Shown here: positions 10,981 to 24,137 of the stretch, in pieces
Position numbering within the stretch: the first letter of the stretch is position 1
Layout of the letters: each line of letters opens with the position of its first letter
IMG/VR virus record: IMGVR_UViG_3300022917_000008
Location: 64,001-128,000 of that record
Source: a virus
Taxonomy: Duplodnaviria > Caudoviricetes
Direction: 5' to 3' (one strand)
Length of the DNA stretch: 64,000 nt
Program-made: the position numbers and the translations under genes
Notes under the pieces: generated by a model
Told to the model about the DNA's origin: nothing
The model's database searches: none
What the model saw: only the letters and a program-made list of their open reading frames with translations

Positions 10981-11012
10981 TTTGGAAGTACCAACTAGGG
11001 GGTGTATATTTG
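10981..11012 (+). promoter_or_regulatory. Bacteroidetes sigma-A promoter
   Basis: TTTG-N20-TATATTTG. Confidence 0.75.
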
Positions 11013-11033
11013 TGTATAAACAAATCAACAAGT

Positions 11034-11369
11034 ATGAACAACCCAAATGACACATTAGAGTCTGCAGCTATTGACCAGATAAAAGGGGCAAACCAAAAGG
11101 CCTTAGCAGGTAAGGTAGTAGACAGTGAACAGCCAGTAACTCCACAGAAGCCTATGTCAATAGAGCAGTACACACAGGCACTAAAGAAGGAGCATGAGGT
11201 AGCCAGGCTTAGGGCAGGCATAGCAAAGTTCATGTTTGAAGAGAACATGGCTATGGTACAACTCAATCAGCTAAGGGCTGGACAACACATGGTGCAGCAA
11301 GCACAGATGCCTGATAATCAACCAACTGAGGAAATCCCACAAACTGAAGACAATGGAGATCAAGGATAA
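11034..11369 (+). CDS. hypothetical coiled-coil protein
   Basis: ATG 11034 lies downstream of the promoter. Confidence 0.7.
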   Translation: MNNPNDTLESAAIDQIKGANQKALAGKVVDSEQPVTPQKPMSIEQYTQALKKEHEVARLRAGIAKFMFEENMAMVQLNQLRAGQHMVQQAQMPDNQPTEEIPQTEDNGDQG

Positions 11370-11658
11370 TCAATACAAGGAAGCACCATCAGGTCCTCCT
11401 GTGTTTCTAGCCCCAGCTGATGCTCCTGACAGGGATGCATTAGAGGCTTATAGGCATGGGTTAATGGAGAGGGTATGTAACCTTGATCCTGAGATTGGAC
11501 TGACTATTAGGAAGGACCTAATAGAGTTTGATGAGCAGCAGACAGCAGTATGGAGCTTGGATAGGATTCAGGATCAGCCTACTGATTGTTTGAGGGATTT
11601 GATAGTGAGGGTAGAGAACACAGAAGACATTCTTAAGGAAGACCCAAGACTACTGTAA
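11353..11658 (+). CDS. hypothetical protein
   Basis: Packed ORF. Confidence 0.7.
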   Translation: MEIKDNQYKEAPSGPPVFLAPADAPDRDALEAYRHGLMERVCNLDPEIGLTIRKDLIEFDEQQTAVWSLDRIQDQPTDCLRDLIVRVENTEDILKEDPRLL

Positions 11659-12077
11659 TGGAGCATTTACATGAACCTGAGATAGACCCTCTGGATATAG
11701 ATAGGCCTGGATACTATACACCCAGGATAGAAGAATTATTCTTCAGTTGTGAAGTAGATGTGTATGAAGGAGACAAGTGGATGTCCTATATCATAGATGA
11801 GGAGTTTGATCTGAACAACATATCAAGCTTTAGTCTAAGGATGAAATACTTACAGGCTAAGGATGTGATGGAACTAGGGTTTGCAAGAGTAATGCCTAAC
11901 ACTCCTATGTATCAAAGAGGGTCTTACACTATTACTACATACAGGCTACTTGATCCAACTTATAGCAGAGTGAAGATCAGTCAGAATGGTGTGACAGTGT
12001 TTGAGGGTCATGTGAAGAACAAGTCAGAGTTAAGAAGGATTCTGATACTTAATGAAATAAATTTTGCTGATAACTAA
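11658..12077 (+). CDS. hypothetical protein
   Basis: TAATG coupling. Confidence 0.75.
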   Translation: MEHLHEPEIDPLDIDRPGYYTPRIEELFFSCEVDVYEGDKWMSYIIDEEFDLNNISSFSLRMKYLQAKDVMELGFARVMPNTPMYQRGSYTITTYRLLDPTYSRVKISQNGVTVFEGHVKNKSELRRILILNEINFADN

Positions 12078-12093
12078 GGAAGGAGTATATTTG
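12063..12093 (+). promoter_or_regulatory. Bacteroidetes promoter of tRNA operon 1
   Basis: TTTG-N19-TATATTTG; leader ATG starts 4 nt after the final G. Confidence 0.8.
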
Positions 12094-12096
12094 GGT

Positions 12097-12192
12097 ATGC
12101 AACAACATGCAATAGATATGGCCAATAGAGAGATCAGGGTGAAGAAAAGCTCTGAGGGTATGCTATTTGCTAGACTAGATTACACAAGTTAA
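12097..12192 (+). CDS. attenuator leader peptide 1 (MQQHAIDMANREIRVKKSSEGMLFARLDYTS)
   Basis: Codons 5-17 match the downstream tRNA set; 12149-12160 is complementary to the terminator 5' arm. Confidence 0.8.
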   Translation: MQQHAIDMANREIRVKKSSEGMLFARLDYTS

Positions 12193-12214
12193 CAGGTTCC
12201 TAAGCAATAAGACT

Positions 12215-12255
12215 ACCCCCAGAGCAGCCAAAAGCTACCTGGGGGTTTTTGTTTT
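12215..12255 (+). terminator. intrinsic terminator (attenuator 1)
   Basis: ACCCCCAG...CTGGGGGT followed by TTTTGTTTT, immediately before the tRNA cluster. Confidence 0.85.
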
Positions 12256-12256
12256 A

Positions 12257-12330
12257 TCCCCTTGTAGCAAACAGGTGTAGGCAAGAGTCTTTTAAACTCT
12301 GGGGTTTGGTTCAATTCCAAACAGGGGGAC
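12257..12330 (+). tRNA. tRNA-Lys(TTT)
   Basis: AGAGT-CTTTTAA-ACTCT; T-arm GGTTCAATTCC. Confidence 0.85.
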
Positions 12331-12332
12331 AA

Positions 12333-12405
12333 GCTGTTATAACTCAACAGGTAGAGTAATTGATTCTTAATCAATGAGTTCTAGGTTCGAGCCCTAGTAG
12401 CAGCA
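12333..12405 (+). tRNA. tRNA-Lys(CTT)
   Basis: ATTGA-TTCTTAA-TCAAT; GGTTCGAGCCC. Confidence 0.88.
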
Positions 12406-12406
12406 C

Positions 12407-12580
12407 ATGATAACAATACACACAGGAGCAGGTGGTATGGAGCTATTCCAAGAAATGATGGATAGGGAACTTGGATATGAAAGAGTATATCTTAGGAAGG
12501 TGCCAAGAATACTAAAGTCTAAGTTCAAAAAGAGTCCCTACACAGGGAAGTACTATAAAAGGATAAAGATGCCCCTTTAG
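12407..12580 (+). CDS. small basic hypothetical protein (57 aa); stop lies inside tRNA-Val
   Basis: Manual translation MITIHTGAGGMELF...KMPL*. Confidence 0.5.
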   Translation: MITIHTGAGGMELFQEMMDRELGYERVYLRKVPRILKSKFKKSPYTGKYYKRIKMPL

Positions 12581-12642
12581 CTCATTGGTAGAGCTTGTCC
12601 CTTACATGGATAGAGTAGGGAGTTCGATTCTCTCAGGGGGTA
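12571..12642 (+). tRNA. tRNA-Val(TAC)
   Basis: TGTCC-CTTACAT-GGATA; AGTTCGATTCT. Confidence 0.88.
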
Positions 12643-12647
12643 CTAAT

Positions 12648-12719
12648 GCACCTGTAGCTCAATGGTAGAGCTGCAAACTTCTAATTTGCAGGCTGGAAGT
12701 TCGACCCTTCCCAGGTGTT
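12648..12719 (+). tRNA. tRNA-Arg(TCT)
   Basis: GCAAA-CTTCTAA-TTTGC. Confidence 0.88.
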
Positions 12720-12725
12720 CTATAA

Positions 12726-12798
12726 GGCCAGTTAGCTCAGTGATAGTAGCAAGAAGCTGTTAACTTCTAGGTCCTAGGTTTGATCCCTAGACTGGCCT
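12726..12798 (+). tRNA. tRNA-Asn(GTT)
   Basis: AGAAG-CTGTTAA-CTTCT; T-loop TTTGATC. Confidence 0.88.
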
Positions 12799-12840
12799 CA
12801 GATATTTTGTTCTTTGGAATAAACTTCATACATTTGTATT

Positions 12841-13230
12841 GTGACACAAAGAGAACAAACAATAGCAACCAAGTTCCTATATTTGATAGGAGTAACTAAG
12901 GGGCAGATATTTGCCAAGTGTAAGAACTGGCAGTCAGCTAGAACAACCATAAGGAGACATGCTGTGAAGATATATGAGACCTCAGGGAAGCCAAAAGCAT
13001 GTAACTCTTGTGGATATGATAAGCATTATGAAATATGTCACATAAGGGCTGTGTCTGACTTTCCAGATGAAGCCTTAGTTGAAGAGATAAATAGTATAGA
13101 CAACCTGATGGCACTATGTCCAAACTGTCATTGGGAGTTTGACAATTTAGATTGTGGGGTGGATGTAACGGTAACACAAGACTCTCATAAGGTCTTAATT
13201 GACAGTTCGATTCTGTCCCCCGCAACGTAA
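12841..13230 (+). CDS. HNH endonuclease with its own promoter (12806-12836)
   Basis: CNSCG...EICHI...NLMALCPNCH; C-terminus reads through tRNA-Met. Confidence 0.85.
   Translation: MTQREQTIATKFLYLIGVTKGQIFAKCKNWQSARTTIRRHAVKIYETSGKPKACNSCGYDKHYEICHIRAVSDFPDEALVEEINSIDNLMALCPNCHWEFDNLDCGVDVTVTQDSHKVLIDSSILSPAT
13153..13225 (+). tRNA. tRNA-Met(CAT)
   Basis: AGACT-CTCATAA-GGTCT; GACAG-TTCGATT-CTGTC. Confidence 0.82.
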
Positions 13231-13327
13231 CACAACAAAACTTGGAGCACAAGTATCTACTCATAAAAGGAGTGCTTAGGGCATAGGCTGGTGACTTCAG
13301 TAATAACCCTTCCAGTGAGAGTAGATT

Positions 13328-13399
13328 AGTACTATCGTCTAGTGGCTAGGACATTGCACTTTCACTGCAATAAAGGGGGATCGAAACCCCCTAGTACTA
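13328..13399 (+). tRNA. tRNA-Glu(TTC)
   Basis: TTGCA-CTTTCAC-TGCAA; D-arm GTCTAGTGGCTAGGAC. Confidence 0.88.
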
Positions 13400-13406
13400 C
13401 AACCAT

Positions 13407-13483
13407 AGCCTCAGGGGCTGCTAGAAGTGGCCACTCCCCTGTCACGGGAGAATATCAGGAGGGTTTGAATCCCTTTGGGGCTG
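13407..13483 (+). tRNA. tRNA-Asp(GTC)
   Basis: CTCCC-CTGTCAC-GGGAG. Confidence 0.8.
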
Positions 13484-13484
13484 C

Positions 13485-13616
13485 ATGAAAGAGACATTCA
13501 ACAGGATATGGAATGATCCAGTGGGATCAGATATCATAGCTGGACTGATAGTGTTAGTAATAGCATTTGTACTATCCAGAGTATTCAACATCAAGATTCC
13601 TCATTTTGACCCTTAG
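13485..13616 (+). CDS. small single-TM peptide (43 aa)
   Basis: MKETFNRIWNDPVGSDIIAGLIVLVIAFVLSRVF...; stop lies inside the next tRNA. Confidence 0.5.
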   Translation: MKETFNRIWNDPVGSDIIAGLIVLVIAFVLSRVFNIKIPHFDP

Positions 13617-13679
13617 CTCAATAGGTAGAGCAGGATACTCATAATATCAAGGTAGTGGGTTCAAATCCCTCAGGGTCAA
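13607..13679 (+). tRNA. tRNA(CAT), probably Ile2 (lysidine type, reads ATA)
   Basis: GATA-CTCATAA-TATC; body resembles bacterial tRNA-Ile2 (CCTTAGCTCA...AGAGCAGG..ACTCATAAT). Confidence 0.75.
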
Positions 13680-13691
13680 CAAACTAACATT

Positions 13692-14471
13692 ATGTTCTAC
13701 GTATTGCAAGAGAATGTTTTCAAGGAGTCCCATCATGAACTAATAATGAACTGGATGGAAAAGGCTGGAATAGAGCATGAAGTAATCAAGTTCAGACCTT
13801 TCACAGACACATTAGAAGTAGAGACTAAGAGGAAGGACATATGGTTATGGGGATCAGTTAGTGCATCCAGGATAGCTGAGAAGTACGGATGGTCTCCTGG
13901 TAGTATGTACAATGACAATCATGACCTTGAGGTCTACTCCAAGTACTATGGTGAGAACATGCTAAACCATGATGGTGTGGTAATGAGAGTTACTGATCCA
14001 CTCCCAGATGGTTTAGTCTCATTCTTTGCTAGACCAACTAAGGATACTAAGGCATTCACAGGACAGGTCTTTGATGCTAAGGAATGGAATGAATGGGTAG
14101 ATGATATGACTAGGGCAGGCTTAGTTAGAAGCTTCAGTAAGGATACTAAGGTACTACTAGCGCCTCTCAAGTTGATACAGCAAGAGGTAAGGTGCTGGGT
14201 GATAGGAGGTAAAGTAGTGTCTGCAAGTAGATATAAGATGCATGACAGGATACAATACCAGAACTATGATGATGAGACTTTCTACACTGACTTTGCCCAG
14301 AAGATGGCAGACATTTATTGTCCAGCAGAAGCCTTTGTGATAGATGTATGTTTGGCTGAGGGAGAACTTAAAGTGGTAGAAATCAACTGCATAAACTGTT
14401 CTGGTTTCTATCATATGAACGTAGATAAAGTAATGAGTGCTCTTGAGACTCATTTTGGCAATGTCACATAG
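13692..14471 (+). CDS. ATP-grasp domain protein (DUF4343/R2K-like)
   Basis: FARP..DTKAFTG, EVRCWVIGGKVVSASRY, FVIDV...VVEINCINCSGFY. Confidence 0.8.
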   Translation: MFYVLQENVFKESHHELIMNWMEKAGIEHEVIKFRPFTDTLEVETKRKDIWLWGSVSASRIAEKYGWSPGSMYNDNHDLEVYSKYYGENMLNHDGVVMRVTDPLPDGLVSFFARPTKDTKAFTGQVFDAKEWNEWVDDMTRAGLVRSFSKDTKVLLAPLKLIQQEVRCWVIGGKVVSASRYKMHDRIQYQNYDDETFYTDFAQKMADIYCPAEAFVIDVCLAEGELKVVEINCINCSGFYHMNVDKVMSALETHFGNVT

Positions 14472-14533
14472 CTCAATGGTTGAGCACCAATCTGATAAGT
14501 TGGGGGATGTAGGTTCAAATCCTACTGTGACAA
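14462..14533 (+). tRNA. tRNA-Ile(GAT)
   Basis: CCAAT-CTGATAA-GTTGG. Confidence 0.9.
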
Positions 14534-14535
14534 CT

Positions 14536-14793
14536 ATGAAACAAGAAATACTAGATGCAGGATGGAAGTACTATCAGAGCCCATATCTAGCTGAGAAGTA
14601 CAGAGAGGGGGTATATGAAAAGGGCAACTACTGGATGAAGATAAATGAAGATAGCAGAGACATAACAGTGATTGCACAAGACCCAGTAAAGCTACTAGAT
14701 GAGGGATGGGTATACCCAGAGAATTTTAAACTCTGTGTTCCTTATAAAGGGCCCAAAACACTAGAAGGCTTGGATAAACTACTAGATTTATGA
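14536..14793 (+). CDS. hypothetical protein
   Basis: Start reassigned to MKQEIL, after the tRNA. Confidence 0.65.
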   Translation: MKQEILDAGWKYYQSPYLAEKYREGVYEKGNYWMKINEDSRDITVIAQDPVKLLDEGWVYPENFKLCVPYKGPKTLEGLDKLLDL

Positions 14794-15074
14794 TGCTCCA
14801 ATTGAACCCTATACTACCAGTTTTCGTTCCTAGGTTCAACATAGAGGGATTTGCCTTTCTTGTAACTAGGGAATCACAAGAGCATTATACAATCTTCACT
14901 GTGGCCTTAGACAATGGTGAGATATGGGACCTAAGTAACAGGGAGGTAAGGTTTTGTGTTAATCACACTATGGACAGATCATTTATTAACAAGGGGGACA
15001 CAATATTCAAAGATGCTTTTAGACCACATAACAGGGCTGTTCCTGATGATAAAACACAGGAGAAGGGTAGTTAG
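14790..15074 (+). CDS. hypothetical protein
   Basis: ATGA overlap; MLQLNP...GEIW resembles a small phage family. Confidence 0.65.
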   Translation: MMLQLNPILPVFVPRFNIEGFAFLVTRESQEHYTIFTVALDNGEIWDLSNREVRFCVNHTMDRSFINKGDTIFKDAFRPHNRAVPDDKTQEKGS

Positions 15075-15176
15075 GTTCAAGGTACCCAGGGCTAAGGTAA
15101 TGCAGGTATACAGGTTCTCTAGGCCCAATGCCAAGGCTTTGTACTTAGGGCTGGGCAGGTTCATCTTTATCAACTA

Positions 15177-15246
15177 GGGCTAGATGCCAATGGCAGGTCA
15201 ACTCCCTTGCAAGGAGATTGTTTGGGTTCGACTCCCACTATGTCCA
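15177..15246 (+). tRNA. tRNA-Ala(TGC), atypical
   Basis: CTCC-CTTGCAA-GGAG; G3:U70 pair; irregular acceptor and D arms. Confidence 0.7.
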
Positions 15247-15302
15247 CTAATTTAATCCCAAGTATGGAGTTAATTTTGTATCTTTATTTGTAAAGATATA
15301 CT

Positions 15303-16673
15303 ATGGCTACTGCAACAATAAATTGGGTACCCACCAATGGAAGTGGGTATGAAATATGGTATGGTAAGCTAACTATGGTTGGCACTACTTTCTTACCTCC
15401 TTCTACAGGCTGGATACAAGCTCCTGGTTCACCTTTTGATTCTACTCTGGGTACAGCTACTATCAATGGACTGGATGACAACACTCAGTACAGGATAGTA
15501 ACTAGGGCTGACTGTACATCTGCTGACAGTCCATGGATTGATAAGAGTGTGGACAAGATAGTCTGCCCTACTTTCACTGTAGTAGCTAATCCAGTAGGTG
15601 GAACAGATGTGGGAGCTTCAATCACAGCAAACATTAGCCTGTCTAATATTGTTGAATTTGGATTGATAGTCTCCTCAGTTACTCTCACTGTCAAGAAGAC
15701 AAGTGATTCTTCAGTAGCAGCAACTAAGGTATTCTCTGCTCCATATACAGACACTACTCTCACTAACACATTCACATCTTTACTTACTAATACCAGTTAC
15801 ACAGTATATCTGACTTTGCATGATAGTGTGAATTCAGTGGATGTTACATGCACAAATCATGCTGTAACAACACTTGCATTCATACCACCTCCTACATGTA
15901 CAGCTCCAACATTCTCTATTAGCAATATCACACAATCTTCTGCCTTAGTTACAATAACATCAACTCTTCTAACTGGGGACACATATGATATTTCTATCAA
16001 TGGTGGATCATCCTATGTCTATACAGGACTAACTGGGGCAACATTCAGTCTTACAGGACTAACCCAGGGCACTAATTATGTAGTTGTGGTAAGGAGGAAC
16101 TGTGCAGCTGGTAATCAAGGCATTAGCACAAGTCAGACATTCACTACTGCAAGTAACATCATACCAGCAACTATACAAGCTAATAGGAGTAATGGACAGA
16201 TCAATACTGGTGGTGGACCAAGGTGGCAGTATTCAATGGTAATAACATTCCAACAACCTACACCATTCCCCATTACTATTTACTTTGGTCAGTCTGTGAT
16301 TGTAGGACAAGTAGGTGGAGGACAGTGTAGGTACAGTCAGGGATATGATATGTATACACCTCCAACTACAGGACCAATAGCTTGTTGTTTTGGTGGATGT
16401 ACATATCCAGCTCCAAACTCTAACAAGCCTTGGAGGATAGATGTACCTGCAGGTGTGGTCACATATACAGTACCATTTGACACTGCATTCAGAGATGGGG
16501 TCACTCATGCTGACTTGCAACAAGTGTGGTGTGTACAGGAGCCTGTGGGCACAGGTGCAGTGGATTACATTAGTGATTTGTGGATGAAGATTACTGCTCC
16601 TTCAGGATATTTCTGTAACTTCACTCCTGTACCTGGAGCACATACATCAGGGATAACAATACACAATCTATAA
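15303..16673 (+). CDS. FN3-repeat, Cys/Thr-rich virion decoration or fibre-like protein
   Basis: GLDDNTQYRIV, SLLTNTSYTV, GLTQGTNYVV FN3 signatures; N-terminus is paralogous to 42583..43809. Confidence 0.8.
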   Translation: MATATINWVPTNGSGYEIWYGKLTMVGTTFLPPSTGWIQAPGSPFDSTLGTATINGLDDNTQYRIVTRADCTSADSPWIDKSVDKIVCPTFTVVANPVGGTDVGASITANISLSNIVEFGLIVSSVTLTVKKTSDSSVAATKVFSAPYTDTTLTNTFTSLLTNTSYTVYLTLHDSVNSVDVTCTNHAVTTLAFIPPPTCTAPTFSISNITQSSALVTITSTLLTGDTYDISINGGSSYVYTGLTGATFSLTGLTQGTNYVVVVRRNCAAGNQGISTSQTFTTASNIIPATIQANRSNGQINTGGGPRWQYSMVITFQQPTPFPITIYFGQSVIVGQVGGGQCRYSQGYDMYTPPTTGPIACCFGGCTYPAPNSNKPWRIDVPAGVVTYTVPFDTAFRDGVTHADLQQVWCVQEPVGTGAVDYISDLWMKITAPSGYFCNFTPVPGAHTSGITIHNL

Positions 16674-16674
16674 T

Positions 16675-17652
16675 ATGAGTTTGATTAAGGATTTCTGCAA
16701 ATGGTTCAATGGGGAAGAGGATGTTGACAATACCCTCTATGTGATTACAGTGGTATTCAATCCTTTCAATTTCAAGTCCAGGTACAAGTTGTACAGGGAG
16801 TTCAGGGAGTACATGTCTACACAGAAGAATGTGAGGCTTCTAACAGTAGAAGTAGCACTAGGGGATAGGCCATTTAGAGTAACTAGGGCCAATAACTCTT
16901 GGAATGTGCAACTAAGGACTGAGGAAGAGATGTGGCACAAGGAGGCAGCTATTAATAGAGGGTTCAAACATCTATTACACTTGGTACCTAATGCCAAGTA
17001 TGTTGGATGGTTTGATTCTGATGTTAGGTTTGCTAATCCAGACTGGGTTAAGGAGACTATTCATGCCCTACACAGGTACAAGATAGTCCAGCCCTTCTCA
17101 CAAGTTGTATACATGGATGCAAAGTATGAAGAGTTGTGGCATACACCAAGTGCACTGAAACACTACCATAACAAATTAGGATACTATCAATATCCCCAAG
17201 TACCTCCTGGGTATCTATGTGGAGGACATCCAGGGTTAGCTTGGGCTGCAAGAGTAGATACTTTCAGGAAACTAGGAGGACTAATGGACTTCTGTATAGC
17301 AGGATCAGCAGACACACACATGCTGAATGCACTACTGGGAGATGTCAACATATTCTACAAACCTGGTATGACACAGGTGTTCAGGACTGAGCTTAAGAAG
17401 TGGCAGGACAAAGCAGATGAGCATGTTAAACAAAATATAGGCTACGTCAATGGAATCTGCTATCATTACTGGCATGGGAAGAGTGAGAAAAGGGGATATG
17501 AGAAGAGGTGGGACATAATGAACTTTCATCAATTTGACCCTTCTACTGACATTGTGAGGGGTCATAATGGACTATGGAAGTGGGCTGGAAACAAGCCCCA
17601 GTTAGTCTATGATCTAAGGAAATCAATGTCAGAAAGGAATGAAGATGAGTAA
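16675..17652 (+). CDS. glycosyltransferase-like protein (GT-A fold)
   Basis: WHKEAAINRG...YVGWFDSDVRF (DxD motif)...HYWHG. Confidence 0.7.
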   Translation: MSLIKDFCKWFNGEEDVDNTLYVITVVFNPFNFKSRYKLYREFREYMSTQKNVRLLTVEVALGDRPFRVTRANNSWNVQLRTEEEMWHKEAAINRGFKHLLHLVPNAKYVGWFDSDVRFANPDWVKETIHALHRYKIVQPFSQVVYMDAKYEELWHTPSALKHYHNKLGYYQYPQVPPGYLCGGHPGLAWAARVDTFRKLGGLMDFCIAGSADTHMLNALLGDVNIFYKPGMTQVFRTELKKWQDKADEHVKQNIGYVNGICYHYWHGKSEKRGYEKRWDIMNFHQFDPSTDIVRGHNGLWKWAGNKPQLVYDLRKSMSERNEDE

Positions 17653-18184
17653 TACACTGATAACACAGGACAGGTTAACAACTTTCTCCTTGCTAAGGCC
17701 CCTAGTTCCTAAAGAAGGATTAGTAGCTGAGGTAGGAGTATATAAGGGAGGATCACTTAAAGTACTAGCTAAACTGTTTGATGACACAGCAGTACTAGGA
17801 TTTGATACATTTGAGGGGTTACCTAAGGAGCAATGGATTGAGAGTGAGATACATGAGCCTGGTGACTTTCATGATACTACAATGAAGGATGTGCAGGAAT
17901 TCTTGCATGATTGTCCAAACGTGGTACTGATCAAGGGACTATTCCCAACATCAGCTAAGGGAATGGATGATTACAAGTTCAGGCTAGTACATTTGGATAC
18001 AGACTTTTATCTGGGTACAAAGTTATCACTAGAGTGGTTTTGGCCAAGGATGGAAAGTGGAGGTATTATAGTGTTTGATGACTATAAGTGGCCCAATTGT
18101 CCAGGTGTAGAACAAGTACTGAAGGAGTTTGGAGAACCTGTGCACCAAGCAGCAGATTATCAGGCATACATAAAGAAACCATGA
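17639..18184 (+). CDS. TylF/MycF/NovP-like O-methyltransferase
   Basis: AEVGVYKGGS, GFDTFEGLP, VHLDTDFY, GGIIVFDDY. Confidence 0.88.
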   Translation: MKMSNTLITQDRLTTFSLLRPLVPKEGLVAEVGVYKGGSLKVLAKLFDDTAVLGFDTFEGLPKEQWIESEIHEPGDFHDTTMKDVQEFLHDCPNVVLIKGLFPTSAKGMDDYKFRLVHLDTDFYLGTKLSLEWFWPRMESGGIIVFDDYKWPNCPGVEQVLKEFGEPVHQAADYQAYIKKP

Positions 18185-18912
18185 CATACATACAGAACAA
18201 GGACGGACTTATAGGAGACTTCCTGGGATCAGTACCTGCAATGCAGGAGCTAGGTAGAAGGGACAAGCTAGTGGTACAGATTCATCCAGAGGCATTGAAG
18301 TTAGTACCTCTTATATACAACCCAGATGGGATTGTATTTACTGAGATAGCAACTGGGCAAGTGTCACATACAATCTACTCAGCTACTGCATTCCAGATTG
18401 CAACAGCAAAGAATCTGTACATGTCACAAGCATTCTTTGAGCAGGTGGGATTGGAGATTCCCCTAGTTGCTCCTAAAGCTGATTTAAGGCTCATAGAGGT
18501 CCATACTCCAACTTATGACTACATCATATCACCTTTTGCTAGAAGCCTACCAAGCAGCCAGAAATTGCCTAAGAGTGAATGGAAGCAGTTGGTGGATAGC
18601 ATGCCTAACAAGAAGTTCTGTGTAATTGGTACAACAGTGCATGATGATCCTGAGTTCATAGTAGGACCTAATGTGGAGACTAGATTTGATATGGACTTCA
18701 ACTATGTAGGTAGCCTGCTAAGGAATGCAACTAAGGGACTCATCAGTGTTGTGACAGGCACTTCTCATTTAGCATTTCACCTAGGAGTGAAGAACTGGAT
18801 ACTTAATAATCAGGACTTTGCATGGGGTACTAATCCAGATGGAGTATCAATCAGGGATCATATTCCAGCTCTATTTGGAGAAAAGATTAGAGAATATTTG
18901 GAAAATAGCTAG
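18181..18912 (+). CDS. glycosyltransferase family 9-like protein (GT-B fold)
   Basis: GLIGDFLGSVPAM...ISVVTGTSHLAFHLG; start reassigned to ATG 18181 (ATGA overlap). Confidence 0.75.
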   Translation: MTYIQNKDGLIGDFLGSVPAMQELGRRDKLVVQIHPEALKLVPLIYNPDGIVFTEIATGQVSHTIYSATAFQIATAKNLYMSQAFFEQVGLEIPLVAPKADLRLIEVHTPTYDYIISPFARSLPSSQKLPKSEWKQLVDSMPNKKFCVIGTTVHDDPEFIVGPNVETRFDMDFNYVGSLLRNATKGLISVVTGTSHLAFHLGVKNWILNNQDFAWGTNPDGVSIRDHIPALFGEKIREYLENS

Positions 18913-18928
18913 GACTGCACTATATTTG
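18897..18928 (+). promoter_or_regulatory. Bacteroidetes promoter
   Basis: TTTG-N20-TATATTTG upstream of the tRNA-like RNAs and suppressor. Confidence 0.8.
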
Positions 18929-18936
18929 TATTACAT

Positions 18937-19008
18937 GCGGGGGATACTTAGAGAGCCCTGTTCTCTTATAACCCTTTAATACAGCCATAAAAGCTGTCCC
19001 CCGTTCCA
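18937..19008 (+). ncRNA. tRNA-like RNA A (acceptor stem, T-like arm, CCA)
   Basis: GCGGGGG/CCCCCGT-T-CCA; ACAGC-N7-GCTGT; no canonical anticodon arm. Confidence 0.6.
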
Positions 19009-19009
19009 T

Positions 19010-19059
19010 GGAGAGGTGCTTCTAAGCTTTAGGTTGGTGTGATCCCAACTCTCTCTGCA
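19010..19059 (+). ncRNA. mini tRNA-like RNA B
   Basis: GGAGAG/CTCTCT acceptor stacked on GTTGG-TGTGATC-CCAAC. Confidence 0.5.
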
Positions 19060-19062
19060 AAT

Positions 19063-19115
19063 GGGTAGAAATAGCATAGAGCTGTCAGTTGGGTGTAAGC
19101 CCCACCTACCCACCA
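19063..19115 (+). ncRNA. mini tRNA-like RNA C
   Basis: GGGTAG/CTACCC-ACCA; TGGG-TGTAAGC-CCCA T-like arm. Confidence 0.6.
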
Positions 19116-19116
19116 T

Positions 19117-19189
19117 GCCTTCCTAGCTCAATTGATAGAGCGTCCATCTCTAAAATGGAAAGATGTGGGTTTGAGTCCCACGGATCGCA
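19117..19189 (+). tRNA. amber suppressor tRNA (anticodon CTA)
   Basis: TCCAT-CT-CTA-AA-ATGGA; canonical D-arm; two acceptor-stem mismatches. Confidence 0.85.
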
Positions 19190-19204
19190 CTTAAACTAAA
19201 CACA

Positions 19205-19567
19205 ATGGCTTAGATTACATCAACATCCAGATTGATAACTATAGTAAGGAGAGACCTTAGTCATGGTTATCAGACAGCACAGACAGGTCATGCAATAGCA
19301 GAATGGGCTTATAACAATCCCAGGACCTTTAGAAGGTGGAGAAAAGAAAGTGGGTACTTAATATGTCTTTCAGTAAGAAACCTAGCAGAGCTAGAGGCAT
19401 TCAACAGAAAGTTATATGACAACAAGATAAAGTACACAGCATTTTATGAACCTGACATTGGAGAGTTTACAGCAATAGCAATAACTCCTTCAACTAAGGC
19501 AGACCAGTTAACTAAGCATCTACAGCTAGCCAATGTAAAGGCTGGCACTAAGGACAAACACAAATGA
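19205..19567 (+). CDS. peptidyl-tRNA hydrolase 2-like protein with an in-frame TAG at codon 3
   Basis: IVRRDLS.G.QTAQTGHA...LICLSV...FYEPDIG..TAIA Pth2 motifs; ATG GCT TAG ATT... is in frame with the ORF called from TTG 19232. Confidence 0.8.
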
Positions 19568-19635
19568 AGCAATTATCCTCATATTATCTCCTAAGTTCCC
19601 TGTTGAATAGACAGGCTGAGATAGTATTGAGTTAA
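19564..19635 (+). CDS. attenuator leader peptide 2 (MKQLSSYYLLSSLLNRQAEIVLS)
   Basis: Codons 4-14 are all Leu/Ser/Tyr; ATGA overlap with the Pth2-like stop; contains the antiterminator strand. Confidence 0.82.
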   Translation: MKQLSSYYLLSSLLNRQAEIVLS

Positions 19636-19660
19636 GTCATTCTTCGGAGACCCTTATACT

Positions 19661-19696
19661 AGCCCTCAGCCTAAAAACTGGGGGCTTTTTGTTTTT
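19661..19696 (+). terminator. intrinsic terminator (attenuator 2)
   Basis: AGCCCTCAG/CTGGGGGCT followed by TTTTGTTTTT. Confidence 0.85.
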
Positions 19697-19698
19697 AT

Positions 19699-19774
19699 GG
19701 CAGTGTGGGCAAAATGGTAAAGTCGCTTCACTTAGGATGAAGAGGTTCTGAGAGTTCGAGTCTCTCCACTGTCA
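19699..19774 (+). tRNA. tRNA-Leu(TAG), short variable arm
   Basis: CTTCA-CTTAGGA-TGAAG. Confidence 0.85.
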
Positions 19775-19777
19775 CAT

Positions 19778-19857
19778 ACCTCCATGGTGAAATTGGTAGA
19801 CGCGACAGACTTAAAATCTGTTCCTTCGGGGTGCCAGTTCAAATCTGGCTGGGGGTA
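19778..19857 (+). tRNA. tRNA-Leu(TAA)
   Basis: ACAGA-CTTAAAA-TCTGT; Leu-type D-arm. Confidence 0.92.
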
Positions 19858-19859
19858 CT

Positions 19860-20258
19860 ATGGATAATAAAACCTACTATAGCTCCATAGCGGAGCTAAA
19901 AGTAATGGCTGATCTAACAGCTAAGCACTATCATATATTCAATCAAGTATCTGGTAAGGCACCATTTGACTTGGTTGCATACAGGGATGGAGAGCTAAGG
20001 AGAGTCAGTGTCAAGAGTTGCAACAAAGACCCTAGGAAGGACGGGGGATTTGTGATAGAAGTTGGCAGGGTAAGAGCCAATAAAACAGAGAATAAGATAT
20101 ACAAGTTTGATCAGTCTGAATGTGATCTGCTGGCCATCTACATAGTCAAAGAAGATAGAATAGTCTATGTGGAGTCAACAGTAGCGCATGATAAAAGGCA
20201 GATCATCATACAAGGAAGGTCCCAGTTGACAGAGGTACATGATCTTGAAAATCACTAG
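19860..20258 (+). CDS. PD-(D/E)XK endonuclease (group I intron-associated type)
   Basis: AELKV...PFDLV...RVSVKS...CDLLAIY. Confidence 0.8.
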   Translation: MDNKTYYSSIAELKVMADLTAKHYHIFNQVSGKAPFDLVAYRDGELRRVSVKSCNKDPRKDGGFVIEVGRVRANKTENKIYKFDQSECDLLAIYIVKEDRIVYVESTVAHDKRQIIIQGRSQLTEVHDLENH

Positions 20259-20299
20259 GTCCCTAAAAAGACGTGGGGGTTGAACTCCCCCACCTTCCT
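20214..20299 (+). tRNA. tRNA-Ser(TGA), divergent
   Basis: GGAAGGT/ACCTTCC acceptor; TGAT-CTTGAAA-ATCA; long variable arm. Confidence 0.75.
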
Positions 20300-20307
20300 C
20301 AAACTAA

Positions 20308-20392
20308 GGAGAGTTGGCTGAGAGGCTTAAAGCACCACATTGCTAACGTGGGGGCTGTAATAGGTCCACTAGTTCGAATCTAGTACTCTCCT
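20308..20392 (+). tRNA. tRNA-Ser(GCT)
   Basis: GGAGAGT/ACTCTCC; loop TTGCTAA; long variable arm. Confidence 0.9.
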
Positions 20393-20398
20393 CTTAAT

Positions 20399-20482
20399 GC
20401 CTACCATGGTAGATTGGATACTACCTGTGGACTGTAAATCCACTGCCCTTGGGCTTATTCAGTTCGATTCTGAAGGGAGGCA
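20399..20482 (+). tRNA. tRNA-Tyr(GTA)
   Basis: GTGGA-CTGTAAA-TCCAC; long variable arm. Confidence 0.82.
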
Positions 20483-20504
20483 CATTTTGTTGTATATTTG
20501 TATA

Positions 20505-20765
20505 ATGGAATACAACATCACACCTCAGGCCCTAGTTGATAGGGGATTCAAGTACCATGCACCAGGCATAAGTGGAGCAGACATGTGGCAGGGAATGCCA
20601 TGGTGGATTCATAAGGAGAAGGATATAGGTCTATGCCTTAGAGGGACTACTTCTACAGCAAAGCCTAGAGGACTAAGGTTAGCTGGACATTTCAATACAG
20701 AGGTGAGAACAATAAAGCAGTTAGAAGTTTTGATGGAAATATTTGGTTTGAATCCAAATAGTTAG
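20505..20765 (+). CDS. hypothetical protein (probably leaderless)
   Basis: ATG 20505 just after TATATTTG; the N-terminus in the ORF track overlaps tRNA-Tyr. Confidence 0.65.
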   Translation: MEYNITPQALVDRGFKYHAPGISGADMWQGMPWWIHKEKDIGLCLRGTTSTAKPRGLRLAGHFNTEVRTIKQLEVLMEIFGLNPNS

Positions 20766-20773
20766 TATATTTG
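20742..20773 (+). promoter_or_regulatory. Bacteroidetes promoter of tRNA operon 3
   Basis: TTTG-N20-TATATTTG; same spacing to the leader ATG as in operon 1. Confidence 0.8.
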
Positions 20774-20776
20774 ATT

Positions 20777-20848
20777 ATGAAACAGACTTGGCAACATACC
20801 TTTACGACACAAACTCCACTAAAAGGAGAAGGGTATCTGTTGTCATAA
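20777..20848 (+). CDS. attenuator leader peptide 3 (MKQTWQHTFTTQTPLKGEGYLLS)
   Basis: Codons 3-14 are all Gln/Thr/Trp/His/Phe/Pro; contains the antiterminator strand. Confidence 0.85.
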   Translation: MKQTWQHTFTTQTPLKGEGYLLS

Positions 20849-20883
20849 CATTCCAAGAAAGATTGTAATAATGAAACACTGAT

Positions 20884-20912
20884 ACCCTCCATTCCTGGAG
20901 GGTTTTTTATTT
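20884..20912 (+). terminator. intrinsic terminator (attenuator 3)
   Basis: ACCCTCCA-TTCC-TGGAGGGT followed by TTTTTATTTT. Confidence 0.88.
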
Positions 20913-20984
20913 TGGGTGGTTGACCAATGGTAGGTCCCTACATTTGGGATGTAGAATTTGCAGGTTCGAGTCCTGTTCACCCAA
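20913..20984 (+). tRNA. tRNA-Pro(TGG)
   Basis: CTACA-TTTGGGA-TGTAG. Confidence 0.85.
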
Positions 20985-20988
20985 CTAT

Positions 20989-21061
20989 GGTGCACAAGCT
21001 AATCTGGTGAAAGCACTAGACTGAAAATCTAGGGAGCTTGGATCAAAACCAAGGTGTACCG
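20989..21061 (+). tRNA. tRNA-Phe(GAA)
   Basis: CTAGA-CTGAAAA-TCTAG. Confidence 0.85.
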
Positions 21062-21062
21062 C

Positions 21063-21494
21063 ATGAAACAATCAAATAGAAAGGATGCTAGAAGGGTCAT
21101 AGACTGTGAAAACTGTGGTAACCCAACAAAGAATGATAGATTCTGTAGTCTATCTTGCTCAGCAGAACATGTATCAAAGGAGCAGTATAGAAAGTTCTTG
21201 AGCAGCCCTGAGGACTTCCAGGGTGAGGAGTACTCTCCTAAGTCCTTTAAGAAGTTTATACTGAAGGAACAGGATTGCAAGTGTAGCATCTGTAGTATAG
21301 ACAATATATGGAATGGTAAGGAACTGGTGTTTGTACTAGATCACATAGATGGAAATCCAGGCAACAATACTAGGGACAACCTTAGGCTAGTATGTCCCAA
21401 TTGTGATAGCCAGTTGGACACATTTAAAAGTGGAAATAAGGGAAGTGGTAGGTACTACAGAACACAAAGAAGATTAGAGGGCAAATCCTCATAA
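21063..21494 (+). CDS. HNH endonuclease
   Basis: CSIC...LDHIDGNPGNNTRDNLRLVCPNCDSQ; N-terminal Zn finger. Confidence 0.9.
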   Translation: MKQSNRKDARRVIDCENCGNPTKNDRFCSLSCSAEHVSKEQYRKFLSSPEDFQGEEYSPKSFKKFILKEQDCKCSICSIDNIWNGKELVFVLDHIDGNPGNNTRDNLRLVCPNCDSQLDTFKSGNKGSGRYYRTQRRLEGKSS

Positions 21495-21567
21495 GGCCGG
21501 TTAGTTTATATGACTAAAATACGTCTCTTGTAAAGATGAGTACTGAGTTTGATGCTCAGACTGGCCT
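21495..21567 (+). tRNA. tRNA-Thr(TGT)
   Basis: CGTCT-CTTGTAA-AGATG. Confidence 0.8.
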
Positions 21568-21573
21568 CTTAAT

Positions 21574-21644
21574 AGCCCTTTAGCACATTGGTAGTGCGTG
21601 GAGCTTTGGACTCCATGAAGTTAGTTCGATCCTAGCAGGGGCTT
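21574..21644 (+). tRNA. tRNA-Gln(TTG)
   Basis: TGGAG-CTTTGGA-CTCCA. Confidence 0.87.
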
Positions 21645-21651
21645 CTTATAT

Positions 21652-21724
21652 GGTGCTTGTAGCATAAAGGTAATGCACTGCTCTGTGAAAGCAGTGAAGA
21701 GGGATCAATACCCTCCTTGTACCC
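21652..21724 (+). tRNA. tRNA-His(GTG)
   Basis: CTGCT-CTGTGAA-AGCAG; G-1 present. Confidence 0.8.
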
Positions 21725-21729
21725 CAAAC

Positions 21730-21798
21730 ACGTGCTAGGCTATGGTAGCCACCCAGTCTCCAAAACTGAAGGAAGTAGTTCGATTCTACTAGTGCGTG
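21730..21798 (+). tRNA. tRNA-Trp(CCA)
   Basis: CAGT-CTCCAAA-ACTG; AGTAG-TTCGATT-CTACT. Confidence 0.8.
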
Positions 21799-21849
21799 CA
21801 ATAGAATAGTTTGATAAGCAAACCTATAAAGTTTGCATGTCAAACTATT

Positions 21850-21881
21850 TTTGTTTATATGAACTAAGACCCATATATTTG
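21850..21881 (+). promoter_or_regulatory. Bacteroidetes promoter
   Basis: TTTG-N20-TATATTTG. Confidence 0.7.
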
Positions 21882-21898
21882 TATTGAAGACCAACAAT

Positions 21899-22246
21899 AT
21901 GAGTGTAGACTTAATCAAGGACAAGATAACAGTAAGTGATAAGACTGAGGCACTCAGGCTGCACCTACTTATTAAGTCCTTCCAGACAGGTCTAAACCTC
22001 TCAGAGTCAGACATTAACAGTCTGGTTGAGCTTAGCATAGTAGGGTATAACCCAGAGTTCTTCAAGGCTTGTGTAGACAAGGGCTATTACAAGAGTGAGC
22101 AGACTGTAAGGAATGCCATAGCCAAGATGACTAACATGGGGATACTGTACTACAGGAAGAGAGGGGAAAGGAAGATCAATGAGGACTTCCTACCTAAAAC
22201 AAGTTCAGACAAGGTAATGTTTCAATACTTAGTGGGTAACATATGA
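21899..22246 (+). CDS. putative winged-HTH DNA-binding protein
   Basis: SEQTVRNAIAKMTNMGIL HTH-like segment. Confidence 0.55.
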   Translation: MSVDLIKDKITVSDKTEALRLHLLIKSFQTGLNLSESDINSLVELSIVGYNPEFFKACVDKGYYKSEQTVRNAIAKMTNMGILYYRKRGERKINEDFLPKTSSDKVMFQYLVGNI

Positions 22247-22581
22247 TAGTAAGGGCATCTGAAATATATACTGTAACAGCACTAAGGCATGGATTGGACC
22301 AAGAACTTGTTTCCTCAGTTGGTGAGACAGTGTTCAAGTCCTTGATGGAAAAGATGGTAGTACCTCATGACCTAGCTTATGAGTTGGATCATGTGGGGAC
22401 ATTTGCTATTAGACACAAGAAGTTCTTGGGTAAGCATGCAACCCTTTTGAGTAATAACCCTGACCATCCCTTTGTGTCAACATGGAGGCATGTTATAGAC
22501 ATGGTACAGGACTTCAGAAACACTAAGGCACAATTTCAATCTAGGAGGGCAGAATATGACAGAGCCAAAAAACAAGGCTAA
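22243..22581 (+). CDS. HU/IHF-like protein (putative)
   Basis: ELDHVGTFAIR resembles the HU beta-arm motif. Confidence 0.45.
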   Translation: MIVRASEIYTVTALRHGLDQELVSSVGETVFKSLMEKMVVPHDLAYELDHVGTFAIRHKKFLGKHATLLSNNPDHPFVSTWRHVIDMVQDFRNTKAQFQSRRAEYDRAKKQG

Positions 22582-22873
22582 GATCAGCCTTAAGAATATA
22601 GGTAGGTTCTTGCAGGGATACTCCAGGATGTTCTCAGAGACCTTTGGCTTGCTTGAAAAGCACAAACAGGAGCAAGTTATATGGAGATCAGAACAGGCCA
22701 AGGAATGCCTTAAAAATGGCTCCTGCTTGTATTGTGGATGTGACACCCCAGCTAAATTTTATGGAGATGAAGCATGTGAGGACCCTCAAAGGCAATGTTA
22801 CCCTAGTATGATGGATGTACCAACTTGGGAACAGTATAAGGCAGAACATCAAATAACCATTAAAGTAGACTAA
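22556..22873 (+). CDS. Cys-rich hypothetical protein
   Basis: CLKNGSCLYCGC...C...CYP. Confidence 0.7.
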   Translation: MTEPKNKAKISLKNIGRFLQGYSRMFSETFGLLEKHKQEQVIWRSEQAKECLKNGSCLYCGCDTPAKFYGDEACEDPQRQCYPSMMDVPTWEQYKAEHQITIKVD

Positions 22874-23181
22874 TGGGACAAGAAGTAACAATAAGCCCTA
22901 GTAGGATGGACTTGGGCAAGATAGATAACAAACCCAGAAAGTTCTGGTTTGAAGTCAGGAATAACCACCATGCAACTCTTGACTTAGCAGCTTGGGCCTC
23001 TTGTGGCTGTACTACACCAATAGTAGTCCCTAGTAGGGTTGAACCTGGGCAGACAGCACAACTGAGGGTAGAATTTGATCCCACTGGTAAAAGTGGCCTC
23101 CAGGAGAAGGGAGTGGGAGTAACTTATGTTATAGAGGGCCATCAGAAGAACACAGGAGCAACCTTTGTTGCAAACATCTAA
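22873..23181 (+). CDS. DUF1573-like Ig-fold protein
   Basis: ASCGCTTP...VEPGQTAQLRVEFD. Confidence 0.75.
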   Translation: MGQEVTISPSRMDLGKIDNKPRKFWFEVRNNHHATLDLAAWASCGCTTPIVVPSRVEPGQTAQLRVEFDPTGKSGLQEKGVGVTYVIEGHQKNTGATFVANI

Positions 23182-23192
23182 AACAAAATACT

Positions 23193-23492
23193 ATGAGTTT
23201 CCACAATCACACACATGAAGAGGGTCATCTATGTGATGACTGCAAGGCAGAATTGAAAGAGGACATTCACCTTATGATCACTATCCTACACTCTCCAGCA
23301 GGGGAATCTACTAGGGACTTGGCTGATAGCCTACTATACAGCTTCCTTATGGAGCTATATGGGGTATGTGACTGTGAGGACCCTGATGAGGATGATGATG
23401 AACAGTCAGATAATGATAGCCCTGTACAAGGTCCTATAATTGGGAACTTGAGGGAGTTCCTCACAGCTATGGGTACACAGCACCACACCTAA
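23193..23492 (+). CDS. acidic His/Cys-rich hypothetical protein
   Basis: 99-aa ORF. Confidence 0.6.
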   Translation: MSFHNHTHEEGHLCDDCKAELKEDIHLMITILHSPAGESTRDLADSLLYSFLMELYGVCDCEDPDEDDDEQSDNDSPVQGPIIGNLREFLTAMGTQHHT

Positions 23493-23522
23493 TTATCATG
23501 TTGGGGGCCAGTCTAGTCAGGA

Positions 23523-23984
23523 ATGGAAAAGTATTGTCCTAAATGCAAGCAGAAGAAAGACACATCCTTCTTCAGACCTAACAAATCTAGGAAGGATGGT
23601 CTTCAACCTTGCTGCATAGATTGTGATAAGGAATATCAAAGGCAATGGTACCAGAGCAACAAGGAAAAGGTAAAAGCTAAGTCCTTAGTAAGCAATAAGG
23701 TAAATAGAGAAAGAGTACAAGAGATTCTACTAAGGGAACTAGAAGGTAAGAAATGTGAACACTGTGGGGAAGGTGATATACTAGTACTAGAGTTTGACCA
23801 CCTAAGAGACAAGCAGTTCACCATAGGCAATACACAGTGGGAGAGCGAAGACAAAATAATAGAGGAGGTAGGAAAGTGCCAAGTACTATGTGCCAACTGC
23901 CATAGAAGGAAAACTCATGAAGATATGAACACATACAAATGGAGGTATAGCCAAGGGGTAAGGCAGGAGTCTGCAAAACTCTGA
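23523..23984 (+). CDS. HNH endonuclease
   Basis: CPKC...CIDC; CEHCG...LEFDHL...CQVLCANCH; stop lies inside tRNA-Cys. Confidence 0.88.
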   Translation: MEKYCPKCKQKKDTSFFRPNKSRKDGLQPCCIDCDKEYQRQWYQSNKEKVKAKSLVSNKVNRERVQEILLRELEGKKCEHCGEGDILVLEFDHLRDKQFTIGNTQWESEDKIIEEVGKCQVLCANCHRRKTHEDMNTYKWRYSQGVRQESAKL

Positions 23985-24014
23985 GCGAAGGTTCAATTCC
24001 TTCTACCTCTTCCA
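23941..24014 (+). tRNA. tRNA-Cys(GCA)
   Basis: GGAGT-CTGCAAA-ACTCT; encoded CCA. Confidence 0.88.
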
Positions 24015-24047
24015 GAAATCCAACAAACCTTAAATAAACCAACACTA

Positions 24048-24120
24048 GCATCAGTAGTATAAAGGCTGATTATACTGCACTTCCAATGCAGGGATGAGGT
24101 TTCGATTACCTCCTGGTGCT
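24048..24120 (+). tRNA. tRNA-Gly(TCC)
   Basis: CTGCA-CTTCCAA-TGCAG. Confidence 0.85.
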
Positions 24121-24137
24121 CAAAAAGAAACCAACTA

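Follow-up and report, generated by a model that had tools for sequence, protein, structure and literature searches.

Why phages carry arrays of tRNA genes is an open question, the usual candidate answers being compensation for codon usage, host shut-off, and evasion of defenses that cleave tRNAs. Here, it is raised in a particular form by three tRNA clusters in a 64,000-nucleotide stretch of a virus genome (the window; bases 64001-128000 of IMG/VR record IMGVR_UViG_3300022917_000008, which is 155,657 bp long and rated complete by CheckV), each of which is preceded by a short open reading frame (ORF) and an intrinsic terminator. What do these leaders do to the tRNA genes behind them? An earlier note on this DNA, made from the sequence alone, saw in them the geometry of trp/his/ilv-type attenuation, a view supported by the ORFs, terminators, antiterminators, and covariation described below. 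In our judgment, it is likely that the three elements are ribosome-mediated attenuators of the trp/ilv type that sense the speed of decoding and gate the transcription of tRNAs, and that a given tRNA block is probably produced only while the matching codons are being read slowly by ribosomes. The main line of evidence is that the codon content of the leaders follows the tRNA content of the clusters in related phages.

Leader ORFs match the tRNA clusters behind them

Genes for tRNAs were called with ARAGORN and Rfam combined. In front of each of the three clusters lies an ATG ORF (31, 23, and 23 codons), followed, as the earlier note had described, by a terminator that ends 0-2 nucleotides (nt) 5' of the first tRNA (Table 1). 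Among all ARAGORN tRNAs of the genome, only the three cluster-first tRNAs have a terminator directly 5' of them, and the gap between terminator and tRNA leaves no space for a separate promoter. Within each leader, an unbroken block of 13, 11, and 12 codons, respectively, codes only for amino acids that its cluster carries and covers all 9, 3, and 6 of them. The sets are disjoint and recount to 18 amino acids in total; both the uninterrupted blocks of 11-13 codons and the three non-overlapping sets claimed earlier were thus recovered.

The tRNA lists that accompanied this claim stood in large part. In cluster 2, the listed Leu/Leu/Tyr and one Ser were found, and the second listed tRNA-Ser is not in this genome. 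The tRNAs listed for cluster 1 were found as well, with tRNA-Ala-UGC (15178-15246) only as a weak match (29.8 bits) lying 3 kb downstream, and the listed Ile/Ile assumes that one CAU tRNA is the lysidine tRNA-Ile2. The tRNA-Phe of cluster 3 (20989-21061) was found by Rfam only. Leader composition may be of use in annotation, because it predicts the tRNAs behind a leader, including those that gene finders miss (Ala and Phe here).

In block 1, the codons also suit the anticodons: Arg-UCU is matched by AGA and AGG, the two Lys tRNAs by AAG and AAA, and ATA accompanies a second CAU tRNA. Among the 1288 ORFs of 15-60 codons that start with ATG on either strand of the whole genome, each leader ranked first for the amino acids of its cluster, its run being 13 codons long versus 12 in the next ORF (leader 1), 11 versus 9 (leader 2), and 12 versus 6 (leader 3). 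Chance is excluded as the origin of the match between block and cluster.

A separate observation concerns codon order. In block 1, the order of the codons reverses that of the tRNA genes, the longest common subsequence being 9 of 11 in the reversed direction (0 of 5000 shuffles) versus 3 in the forward direction. Leader 3 of L083, one of the related phages described below, has a similar tendency (6 of 7; p ~0.05), and the remaining leaders were not significant. We know of no mechanism for a reversed codon/tRNA order.

Table 1. Positions in the window of the leader elements, tRNA clusters, and interspersed genes
Feature	Position	Strand	Details
Promoter-like site, leader 1	12063-12093	+	TTTG 12063-12066, 19-nt spacer, TATATTTG 12086-12093; ends 3 nt before ATG
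Leader ORF 1	12097-12192	+	ATG, 31 codons, MQQHAIDMANREIRVKKSSEGMLFARLDYTS
Sensor block 1	12109-12147	+	Codons 5-17; MQQH-AIDMANREIRVKK-SSEG...
Region 2 of attenuator 1	12148-12171	+	Codons 18-25; partners: block codons 13-15 (12133-12139, region 1) or terminator 5' arm
Intrinsic terminator 1	12215-12255	+	Stem 12215-12222 / 12239-12246, U-run; -21.4 kcal/mol; adjoins tRNA-Lys 12258
tRNA cluster 1	12258-15246	+	ARAGORN/Rfam; protein genes interspersed
Cluster 1, first part			Lys-UUU 12258, Lys-CUU 12333, Val 12571, Arg-UCU 12648, Asn 12726, CAU 13153
Cluster 1, second part			Glu 13328, Asp 13407, CAU 13607, Ile-GAU 14462, Ala-UGC 15178-15246
R2K-clade ATP-grasp gene	13692-14471		Inside cluster 1, which also holds two small ORFs
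Promoter-like TATATTTG box	18921-18928	+	TTTG 20 nt upstream; heads the suppressor tRNA - PTH2 - leader 2 unit
Leader ORF 2	19564-19635	+	ATG, 23 codons, MKQLSSYYLLSSLLNRQAEIVLS
Sensor block 2	19573-19605	+	Codons 4-14; MKQ-LSSYYLLSSLL-NRQ...
Region 2 of attenuator 2	19614-19626	+	GGCUGAG...; partners: block (full-length fold) or CUCAGCC of terminator 5' arm and loop
Intrinsic terminator 2	19661-19696	+	GC hairpin and U-run; -16.1 kcal/mol; adjoins tRNA-Leu 19699
tRNA cluster 2	19699-20483	+	Leu-UAG 19699, Leu-UAA 19778, Ser-GCU 20308, Tyr 20399
PD-(D/E)XK nuclease gene	19860-20258		Inside cluster 2
Promoter-like site, leader 3	20746-20773	+	TTTG boxes 15 and 20 nt 5' of TATATTTG (20766-20773); ends 3 nt before ATG
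Leader ORF 3	20777-20848	+	ATG, 23 codons, MKQTWQHTFTTQTPLKGEGYLLS
Sensor block 3	20783-20818	+	Codons 3-14; MK-QTWQHTFTTQTP-LKG...
Region 2 of attenuator 3	20824-20838	+	GGAGAAGGGUAU; partners: CAUACCUUU in block or AUACCCUCC of terminator 5' arm
Intrinsic terminator 3	20884-20912	+	GC hairpin and U-run; adjoins tRNA-Pro 20913
tRNA cluster 3	20913-21799	+	Pro 20913, Phe 20989, Thr 21495, Gln 21574, His 21653, Trp 21730
HNH endonuclease genes	12841-13230, 21054-21494, 23523-23984		Between tRNAs

Leader codon content follows tRNA content in related phages

A search with TerL uncovered a clade of phages of roughly 145-155 kb in public assemblies. Relatives were fetched as loci around TerL, and six phages had tRNA clusters in view, with TerL identities to the window phage of 70% (L081), 54-56% by alignment (L083/L090, L085, L086, and L087), and 35% (L132). 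These contribute twelve further leaders, in which the layout of ATG ORF, terminator, and first tRNA is found throughout. In all 15 cases, from seven phages including that of the window, the leader ORF has 22-37 codons and carries a block of 8-14 codons limited to the amino acids of its cluster, the full set being covered in 13 of the 15. The block triplets are always in frame with the ATG, and the stop codon follows 6-21 codons after the block. As illustrated by the cluster 3 blocks across phages (QTWQHTFTTQTP, QTWQHTTFTTFPQP, WQSHTQFCPFTPT, TTTHTRFWFQPQF, and QWFQFHPFTQ), the order of the residues varies among relatives and their composition is conserved. Composition that is kept while order is not fits codon sensors better than it fits a functional peptide.

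The earlier note had named covariation of leader codons with tRNA content as a way to check its idea, and across the twelve further leaders it was found. Both L086 and L087 have a tRNA-Gly in cluster 1 and GG in the leader, whereas in the window tRNA-Gly lies elsewhere and the block has no G. An Arg-UCU in cluster 1, and with it AGA/AGG in the block, is found in the window only, and L086 has an Arg-GCG in cluster 3 with CGT in its leader. Similarly, L083 has a tRNA-Cys in cluster 3 and TGT in its leader. Cluster 1 of L087 is without tRNA-Glu and its block without E, whereas L086 has both (tRNA-Glu by Rfam, 41.4 bits). The codon AAG occurs in blocks only where Lys-CUU exists, and ATA only where two CAU tRNAs exist. 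In L132, the tRNAs are partitioned differently (Phe, Tyr, Ser-UGA, Trp, Cys, Ser-GCU), and the leader block reads SSYSYWCSFS. When leaders were matched in a cross-matrix against their own set and the homologous set of another phage, their own set gave markedly higher scores, with 10 versus 5 for L083 leader 3, 13 versus 7 for L086 leader 3, and 13 versus 6 for leader 1 of the window. Serine is the one clear exception to the covariation between codons and isoacceptors; L081 carries both Ser tRNAs.

At L085:1195-1790, a leader (block QFWFTQP, then R, QQ) and its terminator are kept, with an HNH-like gene and a single tRNA-Trp behind them, an arrangement that looks like a decayed cluster 3.

Other searches gave no further leaders. 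The 80 IMG/VR loci with a TerL 35-45% identical had scattered single tRNAs near TerL and no terminator with a leader, and they serve as a negative control that is not usable for covariation. In L082, L084, L088, L089, L091, and L092, either no tRNA clusters were found within 10 kb of TerL or a contig end cuts the locus. A locus search with the R2K ATP-grasp protein alone found no relatives, and the region (megablast) and leader 2 (blastn) matched nothing among GenBank phages, or tRNA-Leu only.

Terminators and alternative RNA pairings

Across the window and the relatives, the terminator hairpins have folding energies of -13 to -21 kcal/mol plus a U-run and lie next to the first tRNA in all cases. 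The earlier claim that the 3' part of each leader is complementary to the 5' arm of its terminator is borne out by the folds of all three window leaders (region 2 in Table 1) and, as a duplex stronger than that of shuffled sequences, in leaders 1 and 3. The region 2/5' arm duplex of leader 1 has -25.6 kcal/mol, compared with -10.9 ± 2.8 kcal/mol for shuffles (0 of 300 as strong), and that of leader 3 has -14.2 compared with -5.3 ± 2.2 kcal/mol. In leader 2, the same test, made with a narrow definition of the terminator 5' arm, was not significant.

When the three window leaders are folded at full length to minimum free energy, the terminator forms alongside a hairpin in which region 2 pairs with the 3' portion of the block (the 1:2 hairpin). 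A different structure was obtained for 14 leaders when the RNA was cut before the terminator 3' arm and a ribosome footprint was placed in the block. Under these conditions, the terminator 5' arm pairs with ORF codons ~17-25 in all 14 (with codons 11-17 in leader 1 of L087, where the block is short), and without a ribosome the 1:2 hairpin wins in 6 of the 14 truncated folds. For the fifteenth leader (L132), the antiterminator was assessed by duplex instead of fold. Compared with shuffled ORFs, the antiterminator duplex is the stronger one in at least 98% of cases for 12 of 14 leaders, and also for L132, although all terminator sequences differ. In every leader, the 5' strand of the antiterminator lies just 3' of the sensor block. 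In a ribosome-footprint model, which treats at equilibrium what real attenuators decide by kinetics, the probability of the terminator was at least 0.74 without a ribosome or with the ribosome beyond the block, and stalls within the block lowered it to <0.5, often <0.1, in 9 of 14 leaders.

These folds were made sequence by sequence, because homologous leaders aligned poorly with MAFFT/RNAalifold, by which the terminator was recovered only in part. No match to Rfam leader families or to the T-box (RF00230) was found in window positions 11000-26000 (E <= 0.1) or in three relatives (E <= 0.05); the scan returned tRNA matches only, plus weak sub-threshold matches on tRNA genes.

Host and promoters

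The TerL of the window phage is at most 30% identical to the terminases of GenBank Crassvirales and Flavobacterium/Cellulophaga phages, and a Crass_capsid domain is present in its relatives. Because of this low TerL identity together with the capsid domain, we assign it, on sequence grounds, to the distant crAss-like phages. Its similarities to crAss-like and Flavobacterium phages, along with its promoter boxes, suggest that the host probably belongs to the Bacteroidota.

Leaders 1 and 3 each have a promoter-like site ending 3 nt before the ATG (Table 1). A box of the TATATTTG type lies 3-4 nt from the ATG in L081 leader 3, L087 leader 3, and L132, and 7-50 nt from it in leaders of other relatives. 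In Flavobacterium, the sigma-A box TAnnTTTG is located at -12 to -5 (PMC9723704); transcription of leaders 1 and 3 is therefore predicted to start at or beside the AUG, which would make their mRNAs leaderless. Leaderless mRNAs are rare but known in Bacteroidota: 5.5% of mRNAs are leaderless in F. psychrophilum (PMC9723704), and 3.7% of 5' untranslated regions are <10 nt in B. thetaiotaomicron (PMC7366714). A scan for sigma-70 promoters performed no better than on shuffled sequences, a consensus that does not apply to a Bacteroidota-type host. A further TATATTTG box is found at 20493, 4 nt before the ATG of an 86-codon ORF (20505-20765), which suggests that this phage may use leaderless mRNAs more widely.

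Directly 5' of leader 2, the box scan found no promoter-like box, the nearest being that at 18921, ahead of the suppressor tRNA-CUA. The ATG of leader 2 instead overlaps the TGA stop codon of a PTH2 gene (ATGA). This gene, for a PTH2-family peptidyl-tRNA hydrolase (19232-19567; Pfam E = 4.5e-10), keeps its neighborhood in L081, L083, and L087. The overlap suggests that a ribosome-rescue enzyme may be translationally coupled to the sensor.

A proposed sensor of decoding speed and its alternatives

In the mechanism that we infer, three things are predictions from the arrangement described above: that the leaders are translated, which way and how strongly the switch acts in vivo, and what triggers it physiologically. 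A host-type RNA polymerase would start at a Bacteroidota sigma-A-like promoter, with leader 2 reached from the PTH2 gene, and a ribosome would translate the leader while the polymerase proceeds. Two outcomes are then expected: (i) if all block codons are read fast, the ribosome would arrive at codons 17-25 (region 2) in time, the terminator would form, and transcription would stop before the first tRNA; or (ii) if any block codon is read slowly, its charged tRNA being scarce, the ribosome would lag, region 2 would stay free to pair with the terminator 5' arm, and the polymerase, with this antiterminator formed, would enter the tRNA genes. Each attenuator would act as an OR-gate over the 3-9 amino acids of the tRNAs behind it. 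The switch would also turn on when host tRNAs are lost, whether through host shut-off, anticodon nucleases, or a mismatch in codon usage. Since its product is the very tRNA that is sensed, the device would constitute a closed, self-limiting feedback loop on tRNA supply.

A role in counter-defense, with a link to anticodon nucleases such as PrrC and PARIS, is plausible, and a self-limiting supply loop or compensation for codon usage would fit equally well. On a broader scale, we lean, with some reservation, toward a general and undescribed principle in which large phages keep a per-isoacceptor tRNA homeostat, using on-demand blocks to detect and repair the loss of host tRNAs, including their cleavage by anticodon nucleases.

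The same device could have a different input, namely amino-acid starvation or charging as in trp/his/ilv, which would tie tRNA transcription to host nutrition. As stalling reports charged tRNA, starvation must trigger the switch too, and the use of both Ser codon boxes, whichever Ser isoacceptor is carried, looks like matching at the level of the amino acid. However, extra tRNA does not relieve an amino-acid shortage, and the other matches are at the level of the isoacceptor (AGR versus CGT with Arg-UCU versus Arg-GCG, AAG with Lys-CUU, and ATA with a second CAU tRNA), which is why we favor the sensing of tRNA supply over that of amino-acid supply and regard starvation as an improbable primary input.

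Several observations weigh against a sensor of decoding speed. First, on the side of the RNA, the folding with and without a ribosome footprint that had been proposed as a check gave the expected switch only in part, as the equilibrium model has none in 5 of 14 leaders. In this model, only a part of the block triggers (for example, N-R-E-I-R in leader 1), and stalls at its first or last codons do not. The antiterminator also forms ribosome-free in 8 of 14 truncated folds, and therefore an untranslated leader may read through, unlike trp. Second, on the side of the codons, leader 2 of the window has four Ser codons, of which three (TCN) are not readable by the phage's Ser-GCU; every leader 2 uses both TCN and AGY, regardless of the Ser tRNA carried; and C/U-ending family-box codons require four-way reading by U34. 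Third, on the side of the locus, the TATATTTG box is so close to the ATG of leaders 1 and 3 (3 nt) that the transcript might begin inside this codon. The interior of clusters 1-3 holds protein genes and possible promoters (12829 and 20493), and the gate may therefore cover the first tRNAs only. The Cys, Gly, suppressor, and initiator tRNAs of the window phage are all without a leader, and in the L083 phage cluster 1 is scattered or fragmented and has no leader.

The ribosome-free antiterminators and the leaders in which the model finds no switch would also fit if the leaders and terminators were real but worked in reverse or as a timer, leader translation simply linking tRNA output to overall ribosome availability or infection stage and the codons serving otherwise. 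Such an arrangement leaves the exact match between block and cluster and the tracking of tRNA gains and losses unexplained, and in every case region 2 follows the block directly on its 3' side, the position required for stall-dependent release; we therefore consider it very unlikely. It is scarcely credible that the leader RNA binds anticodons directly and untranslated, as a T-box-like multi-specifier or a tRNA sponge. The triplets strung together in the block are, as this would demand, complementary to the anticodons of the tRNAs downstream, but they are always in the ATG frame and followed by a stop 6-21 codons past the block, and neither a T-box or other riboswitch family (E <= 0.1 or 0.05) nor a specifier-loop or discriminator architecture was found. 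Coincidence, in which unrelated small ORFs precede ordinary terminators of the preceding genes, could appeal to the breadth of set 1 (nine common amino acids, for which one unrelated ORF has a run of 12) but is effectively refuted by the block/cluster match in three of three window clusters, the ranking of each leader at the top of the 1288 ORFs, the covariation over fifteen leaders from seven phages including L132, and a terminator/tRNA gap that fits no promoter.

If the leaders are indeed sensors of decoding speed that work codon by codon and answer with the matching tRNAs, phage tRNA arrays would be regulated on demand. This reading also offers a direct, testable handle, in that codon swaps should reprogram which tRNA shortage induces which block.

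Other tRNA-like and neighboring genes

Outside the three clusters, the window contains a tRNA-Cys and a tRNA-Gly (23941 and 24048), without a leader. A third CAU tRNA (3699-3771, minus strand), which has initiator features (C1 mismatched with A72, and an anticodon stem with three G-C pairs at its base), stands apart from the clusters, also without a leader. A suppressor-type tRNA with the anticodon CUA (19117-19190; "Pyl" according to ARAGORN) occurs at the same place in L081, L083, L086, and L087. The positions of the nuclease and ATP-grasp genes within the clusters vary among relatives, as expected for mobile insertions.

Beyond the window, ARAGORN predicts a tmRNA-like gene with the tag peptide ETEQYLLIK (G000:C1:55911-56315, minus strand). 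Also outside the window are Rfam tRNA matches of 119-120 nt with insertions of ~45 nt after the anticodon region, along with other odd tRNA-like genes (G000:C1:44002-44791 and 47688-47751, minus strand). When TAG, TGA, or TAA was treated as a sense codon, ORF coverage showed no clear signal of stop-codon recoding in the window genome.

Comparison with known attenuators

The trpL, hisL, leuL, and pheL attenuators of enterobacteria each sit before an operon that they control, the ilvGMEDA leader senses Ile/Leu/Val, and the thr leader senses Thr/Ile. The phage elements resemble these in having a short leader, predicted to be translated, with a run of regulatory codons, a terminator before the first gene, mutually exclusive 2:3 and 3:4 pairings, with a 1:2 pairing in the full-length folds of the three window leaders, and, as in some of them, several amino acids per leader. 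They differ in that they would control tRNAs instead of biosynthetic enzymes, the loop closing on the sensed molecule, and in that they would sense up to 9 amino acids, mostly with 1-5 codons each and without long homopolymeric runs. In addition, they are phage-borne and of the Bacteroidota type, have no Shine-Dalgarno sequence, are probably leaderless, and match no Rfam leader.

A closer parallel in what is controlled is E. coli pheST, where a leader attenuator with Phe codons controls phenylalanyl-tRNA synthetase. Here too, leader-peptide attenuation acts on a component of the translation apparatus and not on biosynthesis, although pheST is a cellular gene whose leader senses a single amino acid and whose product is a protein. 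Like the phage leaders, the T-box senses the state of specific tRNAs by a codon-like triplet and switches between terminator and antiterminator. It is untranslated, however, makes direct contact with uncharged tRNA, and regulates genes for synthetases or amino-acid metabolism, and its Stem I, specifier loop, and T-box sequence were not found in the phage leaders.

In mycobacteria, leaderless short ORFs rich in Cys codons are reported to act as Cys-responsive attenuators (bioRxiv 10.1101/834739). These share with the phage leaders the action of a leaderless short ORF, rich in regulatory codons, on the downstream genes of an operon, and they differ in sensing a single amino acid, in controlling genes of cysteine metabolism, and in belonging to another phylum.

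A full-text literature search, with most subscription journals outside its coverage, turned up no paper in which tRNA genes are controlled by a leader peptide. The first genes behind the phage leaders are tRNAs, in place of the biosynthesis or synthetase genes controlled by leader attenuators, and the phage elements therefore fall outside every described leader family. Judged from the DNA, they nevertheless appear to have all the structural hallmarks of leader-peptide attenuation. If so, they would add a case of attenuation in Bacteroidota-type hosts, which do without Shine-Dalgarno sequences, and would extend the classical mechanism of trp and its relatives to genes whose product is RNA and to the translation apparatus, in the form of a closed feedback loop.

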